Assembly: GCA_963766075.1 (NCBI GenBank)
Contig: CAVYAN010000056.1
Coordinates: forward strand, 1-14,066
DNA length: 14,066 nucleotides
DNA from: an uncultured cyanobacterium
GTDB lineage: Bacteria; Cyanobacteriota; Cyanobacteriia; Leptolyngbyales; Leptolyngbyaceae
Reading direction: 5' to 3'
Shown here: positions 3,298 to 14,066 of the stretch, in pieces
Layout of the letters: each line of letters starts with the position of its first letter
Numbering within the stretch: position 1 is the first letter of the stretch
Translations under genes and position numbers: made by a program
Notes under the pieces: generated by a model
The model's database searches: none
Told to the model about the DNA's origin: nothing
What the model saw: only the letters and a program-made list of their open reading frames with translations

Positions 3298-3987
3298 ATG
3301 TTGCGTCAACTTTCTGCTTCTGTTTTGACCGTGACCACGATCGCCACCTCCGCGATTCTGCCCGCCCACGCTGGAGAACAGCAATCCTGGATCAACAGTG
3401 ACATCCTAGCCAAAGATCCCACCGCCCTGTGCAGTGACGTCGGTCTAGGCAGCAACACCCAAAACAACAACGGTTCTTCCAGTTCCTCCAGCCGCAGCGC
3501 CTCGGCCAACCGCAATTCGGCATCAGGTAGTAACTCCAACGTTCAGTCCAGCAGCAGCAGTTCCAAAGCCGGTGGCGGTGGTGGCGTCAGCTTCCTGGGG
3601 ATTGGCATCAGCGGCAGTGGCAGTTCCCAAAACAGTAATGCGAACTACTCCAACCGGGGCAGCCAATACAGCACCGCCAGCGCGGCCAGCCAATCAAATG
3701 CCAGCAGCCGCGCCTCGGCCTTCAACCGGGATTCCTCAACCGTAGTCGTCGGTAAGAACTGCGATGCCTTCGTGGGTGCAGCGGCAGCCCGCGATATTGC
3801 CCACGACACCAACCAAGCCGCCGTGCAAATGAACCAAGACAACAACTCCACAACGCGCTACGGCTTTGATACTCAAGTCAAGATCAACGACAGCAACAAC
3901 AAAACGGCTGTGGATTTGTTTAATTCCCAGCGCCGTGCCGGAGCCGTCAACAATCTGACCCAATGGTATACCCCCAGTGGCCGCTAA
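3298..3987 (+). CDS. Secreted Ser/Asn/Gly-rich hypothetical protein
   Basis: 229-aa ORF with a Sec-type signal peptide (MLRQLSASVLTVTTIATSAILPAHA|GE, AxA site). GGAG lies upstream. It has only two Cys (45, 155) and is followed by a terminator. Confidence 0.85.
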   Translation: MLRQLSASVLTVTTIATSAILPAHAGEQQSWINSDILAKDPTALCSDVGLGSNTQNNNGSSSSSSRSASANRNSASGSNSNVQSSSSSSKAGGGGGVSFLGIGISGSGSSQNSNANYSNRGSQYSTASAASQSNASSRASAFNRDSSTVVVGKNCDAFVGAAAARDIAHDTNQAAVQMNQDNNSTTRYGFDTQVKINDSNNKTAVDLFNSQRRAGAVNNLTQWYTPSGR

Positions 3988-4176: not shown

Positions 4177-5136
4177 ATGCCTATGACCTCCCTGCCGACC
4201 CCGTCCCGCCCCATCAAAATTGCCATTGTTGGCGATGTGCACAACGCTTGGGATGCTGATGATGGACCGGCCTTGAAGCAGCTCGCCGTGGATCTGGTCC
4301 TGTTTGTCGGCGATTTTGGCAATGAGGCTGTGGATGTGGTGGATGCGATCGCCGCTCTTTCTATCCCCAAAGCCGTAATTCTCGGCAATCACGATGCCTG
4401 GTACACGGCCACGCCCTGGGGGGCCAAAAAATGCCCCTATGATCGCCGTGAAGAAGATCGGGTGCAGCAGCAACTCGATCGGCTCGGCATCGCCCATGTC
4501 GGGTTTAGTCACCTGGACTTTCCAGCTCTAAATCTTTCGGTTGTGGGAGCTCGGCCCTTTAGCTGGGGGGGATCTGACTGGAAAAATACAGCGTTTTATC
4601 AAGCGCGCTATGGTGTCAGTAGCTTTGCGGAATCCACCGCTAAGATGGTTGCAGCCGCGCAGCAGGCAGCCTGCCAGTCCCTGATTTTAATTGGCCATTG
4701 CGGCCCCTTTGGCCTAGGCGATCGCCCCGAAGATCCCTGTGGTAAAGATTGGAGTCCTCCCGGCGGCGATCACGGTGACCCTGACTTTGCCAACGCCATA
4801 GCCCAAATCCAGCAACGGGGCCAGTCCATTCCTTTAGTTGCGTTTGGCCATATGCATCATCAGATGCGTCACCGCAAAGACATTCTCCGCACTGCTTTAG
4901 TGAAGCAGACCGACGACACAGTTTACCTCAACGCCGCCTATGTTCCTCGGATTCGCAAAACTGAAACCGACTGCTTCCGCAACTTCTCCATCGTCACCCT
5001 AGAAAATGGCAAAGTTACCCATGCGGCACTCCTTTGGGTCAATCAAGATCTCGCGATCGCCTCAGAACAACTCCTCTATGCCCATCCCGCCGACACCACA
5101 GAAGTCATTCCCTTCACCGCCAGATTACCCCACTGA
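4177..5136 (+). CDS. devT: Calcineurin-like metallophosphoesterase, cyanobacterial DevT/TIGR04168-like
   Basis: Metallophosphoesterase motifs GDVH, VGDFGNE, GNHD, GHCGP and FGHMHH, plus CGKDW...GDHGDPD, which I recall from this cyanobacterial family. The family assignment is from memory, not a search. Confidence 0.8.
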   Translation: MPMTSLPTPSRPIKIAIVGDVHNAWDADDGPALKQLAVDLVLFVGDFGNEAVDVVDAIAALSIPKAVILGNHDAWYTATPWGAKKCPYDRREEDRVQQQLDRLGIAHVGFSHLDFPALNLSVVGARPFSWGGSDWKNTAFYQARYGVSSFAESTAKMVAAAQQAACQSLILIGHCGPFGLGDRPEDPCGKDWSPPGGDHGDPDFANAIAQIQQRGQSIPLVAFGHMHHQMRHRKDILRTALVKQTDDTVYLNAAYVPRIRKTETDCFRNFSIVTLENGKVTHAALLWVNQDLAIASEQLLYAHPADTTEVIPFTARLPH

Positions 5137-5248
5137 AATAGCGCCGACCCCTGAAATCACCAACCCTGCCACAGATCCGATCAGCACCTAGAAGAATTTT
5201 TAATTCTACCCCGCCTTCCGCCTCACCCACTCCTCCTACTCACCGACC

Positions 5249-6775
5249 ATGCACCCCGACTACCTCGAAAAAATCCTCACTGCCCGCGTCTATGACGTTG
5301 CCCAAGAAACCCCTCTAGAGGTTGCCCCTAACCTGTCAGCCCGGTTGCAGAATCGTATCCTGCTGAAGCGTGAGGATATGCAGTCCGTCTTTTCCTTTAA
5401 GCTGCGTGGCGCGTATAACAAGATGGCGCAGCTTGCCCCCGATATTTTGGCGAAGGGTGTGATTGCTGCCTCGGCGGGAAACCACGCGCAAGGGGTAGCG
5501 CTGGGGGCCAGTCGCTTGGGCACCACCGCCATTATTGTCATGCCCGTGACGACTCCCCAGGTAAAAGTTGCGGCAGTCAAGGCCCGTGGGGGCGAAGTAG
5601 TTCTGTATGGCAATACCTATGACGATGCCTACGCCTACGCGCGACAACTGGAGCAGGAAAAAGGATTGACCTTTGTGCATCCCTTTGACGATCCAGATGT
5701 GATTGCGGGGCAGGGCACGATTGGCATGGAAATTCTGCGGCAATATCAGCAGCCGATTCATGCGATTTTTGTGGCGATCGGGGGCGGTGGGCTCATTTCT
5801 GGGATCGGGGCCTACATTAAGCGGCTGCGCCCGGAGATCAAAATAATTGGCGTCGAGCCGATAGATGCCGATGGCATGTATCAATCCCTGCAAGCCGGAC
5901 ATCGGGTGAAGCTGCCGCAGGTGGGCCTATTTGCTGATGGGGTGGCGGTGCGGGAAGTTGGAGAAGAAACATTTCGGCTCTGTCAGCAATATGTGGATGA
6001 AATTATTCGCGTCGATACCGATGACATTTGTGCCGCCATTAAAGATGTGTTTGAGGACACGCGATCCATTTTAGAACCTGCGGGCGCGTTGGCGATCGCG
6101 GGGGTCAAGACCTATGTGGAGCGGGAGGCCATGACCGACCACACCCTCGTGGCGATCGCCTGTGGAGCCAACATGAACTTTAATCGGCTGCGGTTTGTCG
6201 CCGAGCGCGCCGAACTGGGGGAGCGGCGGGAAGCTATTTTTGCCGTCACGATTCCGGAAGAGCGTGGCAGTTTTCGCAAATTTTGTGCCTGCTTGGGCGA
6301 TCGCAACCTGACCGAATTTAACTACCGGATTGCTGATTCGCAGGCAGCCCATATTTTTATAGGCGTGCAAATTCAAAACCGTGCCGATGCCACTAAAATT
6401 GTGGCCACGTTTGAACAGCATGGATTTAAAACCATCGACCTCACGGATGACGAACTCGCGAAACTGCACTTACGTCACATGGTCGGTGGCCGATCTAGTC
6501 TCGCTGAACATGAGTTGCTCTACCGCTTTGAGTTTCCCGACCGGCCTGGAGCCCTAATCCAATTCCTGAACTGTATGCGGCCCCAGTGGAATATCAGCCT
6601 ATTCCATTATCGCAACCATGGGGCGGACTATGGGCGCATTGTCGTGGGCATGCAGGTGCCTCCGGATGAAATGACCGAATGGCAAGCTTTTCTCGATACG
6701 CTGGGCTATCGATATTGGGACGAAAGTCAGAATCCCGCCTACAAACTATTTTTAGGAAGTTCCGCTCAGGCTTAA
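5249..6775 (+). CDS. ilvA: Threonine ammonia-lyase (dehydratase), biosynthetic
   Basis: PLP-lysine motif KREDMQSVFSFKLRGAYN, SAGNHAQG, IGGGGL, GLFADG and EPAGA. Two C-terminal ACT-like regulatory domains (EFNYR, FEFPDRPGAL, LFHYRNHGAD). Confidence 0.97.
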   Translation: MHPDYLEKILTARVYDVAQETPLEVAPNLSARLQNRILLKREDMQSVFSFKLRGAYNKMAQLAPDILAKGVIAASAGNHAQGVALGASRLGTTAIIVMPVTTPQVKVAAVKARGGEVVLYGNTYDDAYAYARQLEQEKGLTFVHPFDDPDVIAGQGTIGMEILRQYQQPIHAIFVAIGGGGLISGIGAYIKRLRPEIKIIGVEPIDADGMYQSLQAGHRVKLPQVGLFADGVAVREVGEETFRLCQQYVDEIIRVDTDDICAAIKDVFEDTRSILEPAGALAIAGVKTYVEREAMTDHTLVAIACGANMNFNRLRFVAERAELGERREAIFAVTIPEERGSFRKFCACLGDRNLTEFNYRIADSQAAHIFIGVQIQNRADATKIVATFEQHGFKTIDLTDDELAKLHLRHMVGGRSSLAEHELLYRFEFPDRPGALIQFLNCMRPQWNISLFHYRNHGADYGRIVVGMQVPPDEMTEWQAFLDTLGYRYWDESQNPAYKLFLGSSAQA

Positions 6776-6997: not shown

Positions 6998-8083
6998 TTA
7001 AAGATTGCCCCGCAACGCTTGCTCCCGTTCCAGTGCCATAAATAGGGATTTAAAGTTACCGGCTCCGAAGCCTTTAGCGCCGTGGCGTTCAATCACTTCA
7101 AAGAATAGGGTCGGGCGATCGCCGACGGGCCGAGTGAACAATTGTAGAAGATAACCATCCTGATCGCGATCGACCAAGATCCCCAGTTCCGCCAGCCTTG
7201 CTACAGGCACATCAATTTCATTGATCCAATCCGGCAAATCTTCGTAATAGGTTTTGGGAATGGGCAGAAATTCAACGCCAAACTCCCGCAGTCGTGTCAC
7301 AGTTTCAGCAATATTTTCGGTTGTTAATCCAATATGTTGAATTCCAGGACCGTTATGAAACTCTAGATATTCATCAATTTGGGATTTGCGTTTGGCTATA
7401 GCGGGTTCATTGATATTGAACGCTGTTTTTGTTCCATTTTGCAGGACTTTTGACATCAGTGCCGAATATTCGGTTGAAATTGACTGATCATCAAAATGCA
7501 TCTGCAATTCGTATCCCATCGTTTTGATAAAGAACTCCACCCATTGGTTCATAGCCCCCATCTCAACATTGCCCACCACATGGTCAATGCCCTTTAATCC
7601 AGCTGATCGAGTCGATTTTGCCGAACGGGCCGTAAAGCCCGGTGCAAACGGGCCAGCGTAGTGGCTGCGATCAATGAATTTAATCATCGTGTCGCCAAAG
7701 ATGCGAATGGCAGCAAACTGCACTACACCGTAGTCATCTTCTTGGTGCGTCGGCGGAATGGCACCCACGGCACCCCTCTCTACGGCCTGGTGATAGGCTC
7801 GGCTGACATCTGTAACCTCCATGCCAATGACGGCGATCGTGTCGCCATGGCGCAACACACTGTTCGCAATCGGGTGCTCTGGGCTCAGGGCTGCACTGAT
7901 GACAAAACGAATATCTCCTTGCTCCAAAACATAGGAGGTTGTTTTACGTTCTCCGGTTTCTAGCCCAGAGTATGCCGTAATGGTAAATCCAAAGCATTGA
8001 GAGAAATACGCCGCCGCCTGCTTAGCATTTCCTACATAAAATTCTAAATGGTCGAGTCTTTTAATGGGATAGATGTTATTCAC
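6998..8083 (-). CDS. hppD: 4-hydroxyphenylpyruvate dioxygenase family protein
   Basis: 361 aa with a GTG start. Fe-ligand motifs DHVVGN, GPGIQHIGL and LFFEVIER, plus SQIDEYL, LLQLFT and GFGAGNFKSLF...E.EQ..RGNL. Confidence 0.92.
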   Translation of the reverse strand: MNNIYPIKRLDHLEFYVGNAKQAAAYFSQCFGFTITAYSGLETGERKTTSYVLEQGDIRFVISAALSPEHPIANSVLRHGDTIAVIGMEVTDVSRAYHQAVERGAVGAIPPTHQEDDYGVVQFAAIRIFGDTMIKFIDRSHYAGPFAPGFTARSAKSTRSAGLKGIDHVVGNVEMGAMNQWVEFFIKTMGYELQMHFDDQSISTEYSALMSKVLQNGTKTAFNINEPAIAKRKSQIDEYLEFHNGPGIQHIGLTTENIAETVTRLREFGVEFLPIPKTYYEDLPDWINEIDVPVARLAELGILVDRDQDGYLLQLFTRPVGDRPTLFFEVIERHGAKGFGAGNFKSLFMALEREQALRGNL

Positions 8084-8422
8084 CGGCTTTTCCTTGAATT
8101 GAGAGAGCGAATGGTTACAGCAAAGACCCCATATACCATGGCAGAACTAAAGATGCACTCGGGAAGCATTCCGTCACATCCTAACAACCTGATCATGCCG
8201 CCTGCTTGAAAGCCTCAGCGAGGCCTCAGGATCGGCAAAAATCTCGCAAGAGCCGAGGGTGTTCAGCGTCACAGCATTGGAGTCCGGGAACTGCGAGTAG
8301 GACGGCTTGAAATGCCTGCCTACTGGCGTAATGTGTCAAGTGTCTACTGCTCAATGCGTCTACAACTCAACATGCCTACTCCTACAAGTAAGCAGCAGGC
8401 CCAGAAACTTGCCCAAGAAATA

Positions 8423-8438
8423 TGCGTAAAATTACGCA
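8423..8438. promoter_or_regulatory. 7-2-7 palindrome, candidate transcription-factor operator
   Basis: TGCGTAA-AA-TTACGCA in the divergent hppD/NRPS spacer. Confidence 0.5.
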
Positions 8439-8611
8439 GTCTTCACTGGAGAGAGAGCATTGATTAAGATTCAATTTAACCGACTAGTAATTATCCGTAA
8501 TTCCACTTATAATCTCTCGCCACCGTAACGCTGGAAAAGTCTGCGCAGAATTCGTCTTTATCCTGAGCAACTTCCGTATAAGCGCTTAAAACAAGGAAAA
8601 TTGGAATATCA

Positions 8612-8772
8612 AAATCGTTGGCTTCACAGATAACGTATCACGGATTACCGAGAAAACGTGTTTAATCTTACACAAAAACCGTATCGTGAGCAACACAGAA
8701 AATGTATTCTGGGTTACCTTTACACAGTATCAAAGAACACTCGTTCAAGGCATCGTAAAACACACTGACCAG
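8612..8772. promoter_or_regulatory. Array of seven degenerate 23-bp units carrying NtcA-like GTA-N8-TAC boxes
   Basis: Units start at 8612, 8635, 8658, 8681, 8704, 8727 and 8750. Perfect GTA-N8-TAC occurs at 8635 and 8704; the variants are GTG..TAC, GTA..AAC, GTA..CAC and GCA..CAC. Confidence 0.65.
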
Positions 8773-9140
8773 ATTTGATTAGTATCTTATGTTCTATGTA
8801 TTTTTCCGGTGAAGGTTGCCGATTCTGTTCTGACTTTGCAGGTAGGCCCGTGTTATCTTGCATTTCTAAGGAATACACCCATGATTTCAGTGAGTAATTG
8901 CTGTGCTGGAATAAGGGCTTTGGCTTCGGTGAAGTCACCCAGGCGAATGGTAGAGGAGGGATGAGTATGCTGGAGCCAATGGCCATCCGCCGAGCGATCG
9001 AGGATTCCCCTTTCCTGCTGTTGTGAAAAAAGGATAGGGTGCGGGTGATCAGACCCACAATGGGTTAGTCAATCCACCCAACCACCGCGAATCTAACAAA
9101 TATTTTTTATAAGGATATTTTTCTGAGTAGGAACTGAATT

Positions 9141-12100
9141 ATGGATCTTGAATGCGCTTTAGAACCAATCGAGGTGTCGGCTCAATCCTATAGTCCCCAT
9201 CCTGAGGCATGCCCGCAGGATACTTCGGCGAGAATGATCTTCAGTTATGCCATCGCTGCGAGTCAAGCCAACATCCAGATTCCTACTGATTTTCTAGAGA
9301 AACCAAATGCTCTGTTTCGGCCTGAATTTTATTCATTTACATTGGTCAATCCACCCCGCTGCGCGACGGAAATTGTGTCGAAATCTGACACGCGATCGCG
9401 AATACTCGCGGCAGTCAACATTTTGCTGTATCGATACGCGCAACAAGAAACCGTAGACCTAGAACTAACCGGAGCGAATGCCATCATCAACACAGGGTAC
9501 AGCCCATTGATGCACACTCACCTCAGCGGAGAGGTCACCGTCCGGGATTATGTCGAGCAGGTGAGTGCTGCGGTTCGGGCCTTTGAAGCTGGATTGCCGC
9601 ACGGGCAATTTTCACAACCCAGGGCCAAGCCACCGGTTAAACCGGCGATCGCCCTCAGTTTTGGTGATAGTTTTGGTGATAGTCTCGGTGACAATCGATT
9701 TTTGGCAGACGGGGAGACATCCGCCACCGCCTGGGAACGCCTGCTGCCGGCACCCTTTGACGGGTTTGATCTGCATGTCATTGTTTCGCAGTCGCAGGTA
9801 TTGCCGTCTGGGGAATTGCCGTCGGAGTATGGATTACCGTCGGGACAAATAATCCCCGTTCTATTGCGCTATAACGCCAATGTATTCCAAGCGGACACAA
9901 TTCAGCGGGTGGCTGGACATCTCCAGACCTTGCTGGCAGGCATGGCACATGATGCTGATGGTGTGATTGCCCAACTGCCCCTGCTTACCCAGGCCGAGAC
10001 GCAGCAATTGCAAGTGGAGTGGAACGACACTGCGGTGGATTTTCCTAAAGCTCCCATCCATCATTATATTGAGGCCCATGCGGCGCAGCAACCGCAGGCG
10101 ATCGCCCTCAGGTTCAACGCACAATCCCTCACCTATGCCGAATTGAATCAGCGCGCGAATCAACTGGCCCACTATCTAATACAGCTTGGCATTAGTGCAG
10201 GCGATCGCGTCGCTGTTTGTGTAGAACCCTCCCTGGACATCGGGGTGGCTATCCTCGGAATTTTCAAAGCTGGCGGCACCTACGTTCCCCTAGATCCCAC
10301 CCATCCCACCGAGCGATTAGCGGTCATGGTGGAAGACATACAGCCCAAACTGCTGCTCACCCAATCGCCTGTATTGCCCAACTTGCCCAGTATTTCAGAC
10401 AGGGTGTTGTGTCTGGATCAGGATTGGCCTCAGATTCAAGCACTACCCACGCATAATCCTGAAATCCATTGGGATCTGGAGCAAACGGCCTATTTGGTCT
10501 ATACCTCGGGGACGACGGGCAAGCCCAAGGGGGTCGTCGCTACCCATGGCAATCTGGTGAATTACATTCTGTCTGCACAGCAAGCATTTCGGTTTGATCG
10601 TCAGGATGTGATTCCGGCGATCGCCCGGTTTACCTTTAGCATCACCTTTTTTGAGTTGTTTTCACCCCTGGTGGCCGGGGGAACGCTGGTCATTCTAGAG
10701 CGAGAACATATCCTAGACTTCAACCGCATGGTGCAGACCTTGCAACAGGTCACCGTGGCGCATCTGTCCCCCAGCCTATTGCGTAAACTGCTGGCCCATA
10801 TCCAAGACACGGGTGTAGACCGTCAAACATTTCAACGCCTGCGGCATATTTCAGCAGGTGGAGACATGGTATCTGCCGACCTCCTGGCAACGATGCATCA
10901 GGTGTTTCCACAGGCCGAAGTTTATGTGTTGTATGGCAGCAGTGAGGTGAGTTGCATGGGCTGTTTCTATACAGTGCCCACCGATCGCCCCATTACCCAA
11001 AGTCGCGCCGGCAAGCCCTTTGCTAATGTCACAGTTCGCCTACTCGATCCCGATCAAAATCTGGTGCCCATCGGAGTTGTAGGTGAAGTGTACTTTGGGG
11101 GCGCAGGCATTACCCAGGGCTACCTGAACCAGGCAGAACTCACCTCCGAAAAATTTGTTGAGCTTGAGGGGCAACGGTTTTATCGCATGGGCGATCTAGG
11201 TCGCTTCGATGCCGATGGCAACCTGGAGTTGTTAGGCCGTGCTGATTTTCAAATTAAGTTACGCGGCATTCGGATTGAACCCGGTGACATTGAAGCCGCC
11301 CTGCGACAGGTGCCGGGGGTAAGGGAAGGGGTTGTGGTGGCGCGGGCACTGGGCCACCGTGCAGAATACAGCGCAGAACAGAGCTTGGTGGCCTACATCG
11401 TTCTAGATCCAGCCCAGAAACCCACAGTGGAGGAGATTCGGCGGTTTCTACAACTCAAATTGCCAGACTATATGGTGCCCGTCCGCTTTGTCGAATTGGC
11501 GGCTCTTCCCCTCAACATCAATCAAAAAGTCGATCGGCTAGCCCTACCCGCGCCAACTGTCGTGGATCCGCAGTCGCCCCACCCATATTGTGCGCCGGAA
11601 ACCCCTCTAGAGAGATTATTGGCCGATCTTTGGGCAGCCATTCTGGGCTTAGAACAAGTCAGCATTCAGGATGACTTTTTTAGCCTGGGGGGACATTCGT
11701 TGCTGGCGGCTCAAGTGTTGTCACGGTTACAGGAAGCCCTGAACCGGGAGATTCCCCTGAGCCGACTGTTTGAATTTCCCACGATCGCGACCTTAGCCGC
11801 CCACCTGGCAGGCCCGTTCATGGAGGAGACTGCTCCGGCGATCGCCTTAACCCCAATTTCGCGTCAGCCCAATTTACCCCTGTCCCTGTCCCAGTCGCGA
11901 TTCTGGTACTTGGCCCAGTTAGAGGCCGGAACCGCCTATAACATTCCCCTCACCCTGCATTTGACTGGCGTTTTAGATGTTCCCGCATTGCAGCAAAGCC
12001 TGACGGCCCTGCTCCATCGGCATGAAGTCCTGCGCACAGTGTTTCCTGTGGTGGCAGGGACCCCGGTGCAACGGATCTTACCGCCCCCAGCATTCTCGCT

Positions 12101-14066
12101 GCCCGTGATCGATTTGCAAGATCTGCCAGCGCCAGAGCAACGGACAGAGGTATACCGTCTGGCTCAGAGGGCACTGCAACAAGCATTTAATCTAGCGGAG
12201 GATCTTCCTGTTCGGGGCAGCCTCCTGTGCTTGACAGAGACGACGCATGTGCTGCTGTTGACGCTGCATCACATCGCCGCCGATGGTTGGGCTTTGGCCC
12301 TGTTCCGGCAAGAATTGGCCCTGCTCTACACTGCTTTCTCCGAGGGACGACCCTCGCCCCTGGCCGACCTGCCGATTCAGTATGCTGATTTTGCCCACTG
12401 GCAGACCCACTGGCTGAACAGTGCCCCCGTGCAGGATCAACTGGTCTACTGGAAACAGCAACTGACCACAGCACCGCCACTGCTGGAACTGCCCTGCGAT
12501 CGCCCGCGTCCTCCCCAACAAACCTATCGGGGCGGAAGTGAATTCTTTACCCTCAGCCCAGAACTGACCCAGCAGCTTAAAGCCCTCAGTCAGCGGGCGG
12601 GGGCGACGCTGTTCATGACGCTGTTGGCCAGCTTTGCCACGGTGCTGTCTCGTCACAGCCAGCACTCCGACTTGGTGATCGGCTCCCCCATCGCCAACCG
12701 CAACCGCCGCGAGTTAGAAACGTTGCAAGGCGTTTTGATTAATTTATTGGCCTTGCGGATTGACTTATCTGGCAATCCGGCTTTTCTGGAATTGCTGCAC
12801 CGCGTCCGCCAAGTGGCCCTCGATGCCTTTGCCCACGCCGATATTCCGTTTGATCAGGTGGTGGAAGCGGTACAACCCGATCGCAATCCCAGCTATAGTC
12901 CCCTCTTCCAAGTTCTGTTTGTGCTCCAAAATGCCCCGGTGGTCCCACTGGAACTTCCTGGCCTAACGTTGACCACTCTGGCGGTGGAAAGTGGCACAGC
13001 CAAATACGATCTGACATTAATGATGGAGGAAACCGCCGCCGGATTAACGGGCGAGTTGGAATACAACCGGGATTTGTTTGATCGGGCAACGATCGCGCGC
13101 ATGGTGGGTCATCTCCAGACCGTGCTGGCGAGTGTGGTGATTCAGCCGGACCAGGTGATCGCCGAGCTGCCGCTATTGACCGCATCCGAGCAGCAGCAAA
13201 TTCTGGTGGCGTGGAACCATACCGAGGCCAATTATCCCCAAACCCTGGGCATTCATCAGTTGGTGGAGCAGCAGGTCGAACGCACTCCTGACGCGATCGC
13301 TGTTGTTTTTGAGCAGCAGCAATTGACCTACCGCCAACTCAACAACCGAGCCAATCAATTAGCCGAGCATCTGCAACGCCTAGGCGTGGGTCCAGAGGTG
13401 TTAGTGGGCATTTACGTCGAACGCTCTCTGGATATGGTGGTTGGTGTCCTCGGCATTCTGAAGGCGGGCGGAGCCTATGTGCCGCTGGATCCGGCCTATC
13501 CCCAGGATCGTCTGGCCTTTATGCTGGCGGATACCCAAGCGCCGGTTCTAGTGACGCAGCGATCGCTGCACGCCCAGTTACCGCCCCATCAGGCCCAGAT
13601 TGGGTATATCGATCATGATGCCGATTCCCTCCAGGAAAGCGCCAACACGCTAACCCCCAATCCAGTCAGCGGCGTGAACTCGCGAAATCTGGCCTACTTG
13701 ATCTACACCTCCGGGTCAACCGGCAAACCCAAAGGTGTCCAGATTGAGCATCGCAGTGCCGTCAACCTACTCAATTCAGTGCGTCAGCAGCCCGGTCTGA
13801 CGGCCCAGGACATCCTGCTATCAGTCACTACCCTCTCCTTTGATATCGTGGTGTCGGAACTCTTTCTGCCCCTCTCTGTAGGGGCACGCTTGGTCCTAGT
13901 CAGTCGGGAAGTGGCTGCCGATGGTCGGCAACTGCTGTCGGTATTAACCGAGTCCGGAGCCACCTTTATGCAACCCACTCCAGCCACCTGGCGGCTGTTG
14001 CTGGCAGCAGGCTGGCAAGGCACCCCACGCCTCAAGATGGTCTCCACTGGCGAACCCTTACCCCGC
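9141..14066 (+). CDS. Non-ribosomal peptide synthetase, 3'-truncated by the window: partial C - A - T - C - A...
   Basis: Hand translation from the ATG at 9141 (AGGA upstream) is open for 1642 codons to the window end; the ORF track misses it because it has no stop. A1 motifs: LTYAELN (10128), YTSGTTGKPKG (10500), YRMGDLGR, GRADFQIKLRGIRIE, NQKVDR (11520). T1: GGHSL (Ser at 11697). C2: HHIAADG (12267). A2: LTYRQLN, YTSGSTGKPKG (13704), FDIVVSE (13839). Confidence 0.95.
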   Translation, partial: MDLECALEPIEVSAQSYSPHPEACPQDTSARMIFSYAIAASQANIQIPTDFLEKPNALFRPEFYSFTLVNPPRCATEIVSKSDTRSRILAAVNILLYRYAQQETVDLELTGANAIINTGYSPLMHTHLSGEVTVRDYVEQVSAAVRAFEAGLPHGQFSQPRAKPPVKPAIALSFGDSFGDSLGDNRFLADGETSATAWERLLPAPFDGFDLHVIVSQSQVLPSGELPSEYGLPSGQIIPVLLRYNANVFQADTIQRVAGHLQTLLAGMAHDADGVIAQLPLLTQAETQQLQVEWNDTAVDFPKAPIHHYIEAHAAQQPQAIALRFNAQSLTYAELNQRANQLAHYLIQLGISAGDRVAVCVEPSLDIGVAILGIFKAGGTYVPLDPTHPTERLAVMVEDIQPKLLLTQSPVLPNLPSISDRVLCLDQDWPQIQALPTHNPEIHWDLEQTAYLVYTSGTTGKPKGVVATHGNLVNYILSAQQAFRFDRQDVIPAIARFTFSITFFELFSPLVAGGTLVILEREHILDFNRMVQTLQQVTVAHLSPSLLRKLLAHIQDTGVDRQTFQRLRHISAGGDMVSADLLATMHQVFPQAEVYVLYGSSEVSCMGCFYTVPTDRPITQSRAGKPFANVTVRLLDPDQNLVPIGVVGEVYFGGAGITQGYLNQAELTSEKFVELEGQRFYRMGDLGRFDADGNLELLGRADFQIKLRGIRIEPGDIEAALRQVPGVREGVVVARALGHRAEYSAEQSLVAYIVLDPAQKPTVEEIRRFLQLKLPDYMVPVRFVELAALPLNINQKVDRLALPAPTVVDPQSPHPYCAPETPLERLLADLWAAILGLEQVSIQDDFFSLGGHSLLAAQVLSRLQEALNREIPLSRLFEFPTIATLAAHLAGPFMEETAPAIALTPISRQPNLPLSLSQSRFWYLAQLEAGTAYNIPLTLHLTGVLDVPALQQSLTALLHRHEVLRTVFPVVAGTPVQRILPPPAFSLPVIDLQDLPAPEQRTEVYRLAQRALQQAFNLAEDLPVRGSLLCLTETTHVLLLTLHHIAADGWALALFRQELALLYTAFSEGRPSPLADLPIQYADFAHWQTHWLNSAPVQDQLVYWKQQLTTAPPLLELPCDRPRPPQQTYRGGSEFFTLSPELTQQLKALSQRAGATLFMTLLASFATVLSRHSQHSDLVIGSPIANRNRRELETLQGVLINLLALRIDLSGNPAFLELLHRVRQVALDAFAHADIPFDQVVEAVQPDRNPSYSPLFQVLFVLQNAPVVPLELPGLTLTTLAVESGTAKYDLTLMMEETAAGLTGELEYNRDLFDRATIARMVGHLQTVLASVVIQPDQVIAELPLLTASEQQQILVAWNHTEANYPQTLGIHQLVEQQVERTPDAIAVVFEQQQLTYRQLNNRANQLAEHLQRLGVGPEVLVGIYVERSLDMVVGVLGILKAGGAYVPLDPAYPQDRLAFMLADTQAPVLVTQRSLHAQLPPHQAQIGYIDHDADSLQESANTLTPNPVSGVNSRNLAYLIYTSGSTGKPKGVQIEHRSAVNLLNSVRQQPGLTAQDILLSVTTLSFDIVVSELFLPLSVGARLVLVSREVAADGRQLLSVLTESGATFMQPTPATWRLLLAAGWQGTPRLKMVSTGEPLPR
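9657..9692 (+). repeat. In-frame 12-bp tandem repeat x3 (SFGD SFGD SLGD) in the NRPS N-terminal region
   Basis: AGTTTTGGTGAT AGTTTTGGTGAT AGTCTCGGTGAC. Confidence 0.85.

Follow-up and report, generated by a model that had tools for sequence, protein, structure and literature searches.

Why does a gene for 4-hydroxyphenylpyruvate dioxygenase (HPPD) stand back to back with a nonribosomal peptide synthetase (NRPS) gene whose first adenylation domain, A1, lacks the aspartate expected at position 235? This question is raised by the 14,066-nucleotide stretch analyzed here (the window), which is the entire contig C56 of a cyanobacterial assembly (5.0 Mb, 85% complete). An earlier note on this DNA had reported the divergent arrangement of hppD and the NRPS gene and a Ser in A1 at the position of GrsA Asp235, both of which were recovered (Table 1), and had proposed that the HPPD provides A1 with an acid that has no amino group, a proposal that strongly passed a check of synteny. 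We consider it probable that A1 activates homogentisate and that, in this organism, attachment of one small amino acid is followed by glycosylation of the product or its transfer to a sugar.

The linkage was assessed in 90 genomes of the family, with membership of the HPPD clade set at an identity of at least 69% to the window HppD. A clade HPPD was present in 19 of these genomes, all 19 of which also encode A1 (adjacent in 17), versus none of the 62 genomes without A1; the other nine have A1 and no clade HPPD, and six of them apparently carry a short-dioxygenase variant (judged by the length of the open reading frame, ORF), the remaining three being fragmented. In metagenomes, HPPD was found in 25 of 49 loci with Ser235 versus 0 of the 17 nearest Asp235 relatives, and the Ser235 domains formed one clade when compared with 10 of these 17. 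A scan of species genomes, covering the best 80 of 103 relatives, yielded 78 loci from Cyanobacteriota, Myxococcota, Pseudomonadota, Planctomycetota, Elusimicrobiota, Verrucomicrobiota and others, and 68 of these have essentially the pocket of the window (S299; A-domain family code SIFHSGICMK). Inside 32 of the 68 S299 loci a full HPPD is encoded (20/28 cyanobacterial, 12/40 others), whereas 36 are without it, half of them (18) cut by contig ends and 18 uncut; among the cyanobacterial loci without HPPD, seven of eight are cut. A quick tree distributes the partner HPPDs over three distinct lineages, and in P0032 a proteobacterial-type HPPD is fused to the truncated condensation-like lead domain (C*) and A1, with the same pocket as the window A1; this fusion seemingly misses the carrier domain T1 and may be damaged or misassembled. 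The unit of hppD, the NRPS gene and a family-2 glycosyltransferase (GT2) gene stays together across differing chromosomal settings, and two precursor-supply enzymes recur near A1, prephenate dehydrogenase (14 loci) and DAHP synthase (four loci). Among 401 evenly sampled genomes of the phylum A1 was detected in three, the window's own included (a lower bound, with 10 candidates scored per genome), and the A1 module is therefore concentrated in the family of the window. The link between HPPD and A1 is not due to chance.

Ser occupies position 235 in every one of the 78 genome loci and in 49 of the 66 metagenome loci and thus is not a sequencing slip in the window, where the A4 motif of A1 lies at NRPS residue 496. 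The A5 motif of A1 reads YGSSE (at 10938) without the usual proline, which is missing from all 81 homologues listed as well, and the catalytic Lys517 is retained (at 11526). According to a review, Asp235 contacts the alpha-amino group of the substrate, the A5 proline is conserved in amino-acid A domains but gives way to another residue in StsA, a keto-acid domain, and the loss of either is a mark of non-amino-acid substrates (PMC11253843). Since these are two independent features, their joint loss argues that A1 does not serve alpha-amino acids. As tested here, A1 lacks the defining features of three established classes: of the alpha-amino-acid domains it shares only Lys517; Asn235, the QQVxFMAEGL motif and the stand-alone form of the aryl-acid ligases DhbE and EntE are all missing; and with the StsA-type keto-acid domains it shares the non-proline at A5 but neither the hydrophobic residue 235 nor a KR domain, none being detected in the NRPS by Pfam. 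Neither plasmids nor solved structures yielded a close match to A1 (for the structures, the best profile E was 5.5e-16), and a single-sequence structure prediction of A1-T was too poor for use (pLDDT 38).

In the NRPS homologue P0001 (2,246 aa), the portion ending at residue 1632 matches contig C56 (77%), and the portion that starts at residue 1634 matches the end of contig C101 (84%). The full synthetase therefore very probably has the organization C*-A1-T-C-A2-T-TE, where TE is a thioesterase, spanning C56 and C101 and followed by a GT2 gene. The A2 code D I S Q V T L I W K, taken from P0001 and matched against the parts in the window and on C101, is presumably a variant of the glycine-type code. 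The TE of this synthetase has a Cys nucleophile, and a phosphopantetheinyl transferase is encoded in the genome.

HppD scored 400 bits as a whole protein against TIGR01263 (curated cut-off 277), and its best PDB match is the HPPD of S. avermitilis (1T47, E 2e-116), whereas the match to HmaS (2R5V, E 5e-48) is far weaker. The metal ligands His168, His250 and Glu329 (the 2-His-1-Glu iron set) are retained, and the alignment to 1T47 indicated that Ser230, Asn245, Gln255, Gln269, Gln334 and Phe364 (S. avermitilis numbering), which are active-site residues, are all kept. In HmaS, the Asn245 and Phe364 positions are replaced relative to HPPD. An identity as HmaS was rejected on the greater closeness to HPPD and the retention of these two residues as read from the alignment to 1T47. 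Among the catalytic and ring-hydroxylation residues of the S. avermitilis enzyme, Pro243 is the single one not kept; the cyanobacterial clade of cluster HPPDs (24 rows, support 100 in the quick tree) has Asn in 23 of the 23 members covering the site, and six myxobacterial partner HPPDs have Ala. The spacer between hppD and the NRPS gene contained no conserved element among the loci compared, and a promoter scan gave one match versus 3.9 expected, which is not above chance.

The genomic associations of the Asn form bear on the acid that it produces. Among 40 relatives, HPPD and tocopherol cyclase were both present in 27, both missing in nine and discordant in four (agreement in 36/40), and four genomes (G016, G017, G026 and G431; two of them single-contig or complete) combine tocopherol cyclase with an HPPD of Asn type only. 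Furthermore, a Pro-to-Asn HPPD of another lineage directly adjoins a tocopherol cyclase gene (L133), a Pro-to-Ala HPPD adjoins hmgA (L138), and the gammaproteobacterial, planctomycete and fused partner HPPDs keep Pro243, yet occur with the same A1 pocket. The Asn form is apparently able to make homogentisate, and because of the co-occurrence with the cyclase, the neighbors in L133 and L138 and the Pro-keeping partners, this would be the likeliest product of the window HppD.

A natural variation on the pairing is provided by a second cluster in the window genome (Table 1). On contig C31, a paralogous, frameshifted C*-A-T-TE synthetase has as divergent partner a protein of 222 aa whose resemblance to HPPD is confined to the catalytic half, and a chorismate mutase/prephenate dehydrogenase gene follows this half-size dioxygenase gene. 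The start of C31 matches contig C121 with 98% over 341 bp, so that there are either two copies or a strain variant. The paralogue's pocket (Phe299, Ser330, Leu331) recurs in 10 of the 78 loci, eight of which encode the short dioxygenase; a full HPPD is encoded in none of the 10. This suggests that the pocket tracks the product of the partner dioxygenase, but since the Phe299 branch is one clade nested within the cyanobacterial A1 group, the exchange counts as one event. By alignment, the short dioxygenase has Val at the position of HPPD Asn245, which is HmaS-like; 721 homologues of the enzyme were found at E <= 1e-10, most of them without a name, and its predicted structure (from eight sequences) was too poor for use (pLDDT 36).

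As to the product, a capped peptide had been envisaged in the earlier note. However, the synthetase of the window genome has two modules at most, the majority of its homologues have one, and a glycosyltransferase is a recurrent partner, which makes a small glyco-conjugate more likely. A Cys-type TE was found with GT2 in 16 cases and without it in seven, versus two and 14, respectively, for Ser-type TEs; the GT2 partner of the Cys-type TE is closely conserved, and P0190 and P0209 are A-T-TE-GT2 fusions. In 18 of the 78 loci, all non-cyanobacterial, A1-T is fused to a hydrolase-2-like domain that is followed by a hydrolase-1-like gene, together replacing the TE. Genes for polysaccharide synthesis or export were present in six of 22 loci (L083, L091, L096, L100, L102 and L106), whose neighbor annotation is partial (87 of 118 candidate ORFs). 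The candidate products would be a small glycoside of homogentisate, of its lactone or of its amino-acid amide, or a homogentisoyl ester of a polysaccharide.

In the proposed pathway, prephenate dehydrogenase (in many relatives) and sometimes DAHP synthase encoded in the cluster would supply 4-hydroxyphenylpyruvate, which HppD would convert to homogentisate. A1 would then adenylate homogentisate and load it onto T1, a step that we regard as probable, and in the window genome the C domain would couple the homogentisoyl group to one small, glycine-like amino acid on T2. The Cys-type TE and GT2, in a role suggested by their recurrent association, would together release a glycosylated homogentisoyl-amino acid or place the homogentisoyl group on a sugar. 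Homologues without a second module, which are the majority, would process the aryl acid alone.

Several observations weigh against this pathway. The window HppD and its clade have Asn in place of Pro243, and an engineered Thr at this site leads to an oxepinone by-product (PMC13260116). HppD is the sole full HPPD of the assembly, which also encodes homogentisate phytyltransferase, and it may therefore feed the tocopherol route as well as the NRPS, so that the earlier description of the enzyme as dedicated to the NRPS does not hold as worded; tocopherol cyclase and hmgA were not found in the genome at its completeness of 85%. Eighteen of the 68 S299 loci (17 non-cyanobacterial) extend at least 4.5 kb to each side with no HPPD nearby. 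When 15 genomes with no HPPD beside A1 (in uncut or truncated loci) were searched whole, 11 had an HPPD elsewhere (three cyanobacteria with an Asn-clade enzyme; one genome with HPPD in pieces), and no full HPPD was found in four metagenome-assembled genomes (three Elusimicrobiota, one Verrucomicrobiota; completeness not given), which may be incomplete or whose A1 pocket may also take another hydroxyphenylacetate. One metagenome locus (L195) couples the unchanged pocket with the short dioxygenase. In addition, the genomes compared are related, so that the counts overstate independence, and the metagenome set partly overlaps the genome set. Finally, most A1 homologues are single-module A-T-TE proteins and the second module, where present, varies; the conserved role would therefore be activation and transfer of an aryl acid and not peptide building.

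These points lend some weight to the explanation that the dioxygenase is retuned or A1 is broad, the loaded acid being quinolacetate or its oxepinone, 4-hydroxyphenylacetate or 4-hydroxymandelate, which we consider unlikely. It would accommodate the clade-wide Asn and the myxobacterial Ala at the Pro243 site, where an engineered substitution uncouples the reaction (PMC13260116), and the four genomes with the same pocket in which no HPPD was found. A1 also has, when mapped by residue spacing, the Phe, His, Gly and Leu/Ile pocket positions in common with Tcp9 A1, a hydroxyphenylglycine domain in which the His binds a para-phenol (PMC10687080); this likeness is weak, however, since His at position 278 also occurs in serine-type domains. 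Moreover, the gammaproteobacterial, planctomycete and fused partners retain Pro with the same A1 pocket, the Asn and Ala forms adjoin tocopherol cyclase and hmgA, and Asn245 and Phe364 are retained, all of which speaks against this explanation. It is improbable that A1 loads the keto acid 4-hydroxyphenylpyruvate itself, with HPPD merely draining the surplus. Fungal-type A-T-TE enzymes of the atromentin type load and dimerize aryl-pyruvate keto acids, and the single-module A-T-TE form of most homologues, the prephenate dehydrogenase beside A1 in 14 loci and the non-proline at A5, which is essential in StsA (PMC11253843), agree with this possibility. Yet keto-acid domains are hydrophobic at position 235 (PMC11253843) where A1 has Ser, there is no KR domain, and HPPD would compete for the same substrate, leaving its repeated recruitment and fusion unexplained, as well as the change of the A1 pocket where the dioxygenase is replaced.

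Two further explanations leave the HPPD outside the assembly line. Changes near the Pro243 site give herbicide tolerance, although a literature search found no confirmation of this, and a clade-wide substitution in the active site could mark the clustered copy as a self-resistance gene against an HPPD-inhibiting NRPS product. This is very improbable, as precursor-supply genes imply flux through HPPD, HPPD is in one case fused to the loading module, and in several genomes the clustered HPPD is the only copy and not a second one. Hardly credible is an accidental neighborhood of a housekeeping hppD and an unrelated NRPS gene. Its status as sole full HPPD, raised as an objection in the earlier note, proved true and the phytyltransferase agrees with it, but the second half of that objection, adjacency to ilvA in relatives, failed in all cases (0 of 21 relatives carrying both genes), the hppD-NRPS-GT2 unit is kept in varied settings, and the co-occurrence counts largely refute coincidence. 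Activation of homogentisate by A1 thus remains the preferred explanation.

The system appears to work like an aryl-acid-primed NRPS with precursor supply from within the cluster, as in glycopeptide and siderophore pathways. In glycopeptide clusters (HmaS, Hmo, HpgT, Pdh; teicoplanin Tcp9 A1), as in A1 loci, genes for an HPPD-fold dioxygenase and a prephenate dehydrogenase lie together with an NRPS that they would supply with an aromatic C6-C2 unit (PMC12060904, PMC10687080), and the pocket of Tcp9 A1 is partly similar to that of the window A1 (PMC10687080). In contrast to these clusters, the dioxygenase found here is of HPPD type, A1 lacks the Asp, neither an oxidase nor an aminotransferase is among the recurrent neighbors annotated, and there are only one or two modules. 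The siderophore ligases DhbE and EntE, like the proposed A1, activate a dihydroxy-aryl acid without an amino group and have a polar residue at position 235 (PMC11253843), but they are stand-alone enzymes for benzoates, whereas A1 forms part of an NRPS, descends from domains of the amino-acid type and would use a phenylacetate. StsA, EnSyn A1 and McyG, which use keto or hydroxy acids, share the loss of Asp235, and StsA that of the A5 proline (PMC11253843); they have a hydrophobic residue or Gly at position 235, unlike the window A1. The A-T-TE dimerases of the atromentin type resemble most A1 homologues in architecture but not the two-module enzyme of the window. Lastly, the 18 loci with hydrolase-like genes, several of them in polysaccharide loci, resemble the exosortase A-associated ligase/hydrolase 1/hydrolase 2 sets (TIGR03100, TIGR03101; function hypothetical), although they score far lower than the cut-offs of these families and the synthetase of the window terminates in a Cys-type TE instead.

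Table 1. Features of the hppD-NRPS region in the window and of the second cluster in the same genome.
Feature	Position	Strand	Remarks
hppD (4-hydroxyphenylpyruvate dioxygenase; NRPS-tied cyanobacterial clade)	6998..8083	-	intact ORF, 361 aa; TIGR01263
Asn223 replacing S. avermitilis Pro243	7415..7417	-	alignment to 1T47; clade table
Divergent spacer hppD/NRPS	8084..9140	.	1057 bp, 45% GC
NRPS	9141..14066	+	ORF running off contig end; probable continuation on contig C101
C*, truncated condensation-like lead domain, no HHxxxDG	9141..10070	+	missing from many homologues
A1 adenylation domain, pocket code S I F H S G L C M K	10071..11546	+	
Ser codon AGC at GrsA Asp235 position	10638..10640	+	aligned with LgrA and further A domains of solved structure
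T1 carrier domain, phosphopantetheine Ser at 11697	11616..11807	+	
Condensation domain, intact HHxxxDG at 12267	11871..13205	+	
A2 adenylation domain, initial portion, with Asp235 at 13842	13263..14066	+	start coordinate approximate
Second cluster: paralogous C*-A-T-TE, changed pocket, esterase, short dioxygenase	L001:1820-6511; G000:C31:1-330; L003:1659-3514		

Before hppD in window coordinates lie the genes of a TIGR04168 metallophosphoesterase and ilvA (4177-6775); the metallophosphoesterase also occurs near A1 in L042, and ilvA was rejected as part of the system, being unlinked to hppD in relatives. The genes of an ECF sigma factor (1627-2194) and an RskA-type anti-sigma factor (2206-2939) are each split into two frames, which may reflect assembly indels rather than pseudogenes, as similar splits affect NRPS genes on C10 and C31. 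Further ORFs code for a protein with RTX calcium-binding repeats, a kind frequent in cyanobacterial surface proteins (31-1368), and for a Ser/Asn-rich protein of 229 aa that probably has a signal peptide and matches no Pfam family (3298-3987). Elsewhere in the genome, an unrelated hybrid cluster of polyketide synthase (PKS) and NRPS genes (L004-L006; G000:C10:12000-45000) has a fatty acyl-AMP-ligase-like start and is followed by exporter genes. In two Cellvibrionaceae-like genomes (L120:8159-20425, L122:8151-20425), hppD and A1-T-TE are followed by a formyltransferase/luciferase-like NRPS, a GT2, a WcaB-like acetyltransferase and a PKS, and recurrent genes near A1 in other loci (L058:2635-3771, L076:8193-9389, L087:6488-7303) include anthranilate phosphoribosyltransferase (three loci) and an O-methyltransferase (three loci, variant type).

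The A1-HPPD system is real and widespread and apparently uncharacterized; no description of a homogentisate-loading A domain or of this cluster was found in the literature searched, a search whose scope excluded most subscription journals and MIBiG. Members of the A1 family (291 proteins at E <= 1e-35 within one length class) at present bear only a general annotation as amino-acid adenylation proteins. If A1 does load homogentisate, NRPS prediction would gain a new starter acid together with a pocket signature by which to recognize it (Ser235, no A5 proline, SIFHSGICMK). The system is open to direct testing, as HPPD inhibitors exist, the enzymes are small and carriers of A1 are in culture (e.g., Leptolyngbya FACHB-321, Stenomitos frigidus ULC18 and Pantanalinema CENA516). 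Homogentisate would gain a biosynthetic fate besides catabolism, tocopherol and spontaneous pyomelanin. More tentatively, the A1 family might be a cross-phylum installer of homogentisoyl groups on sheath or capsule glycans that yields an oxidizable coat, with a derived cyanobacterial branch, which has a changed pocket and the half-size dioxygenase, installing another aryl acid; such a glycan coat could cross-link, form an anchored melanin-like pigment or shuttle electrons.

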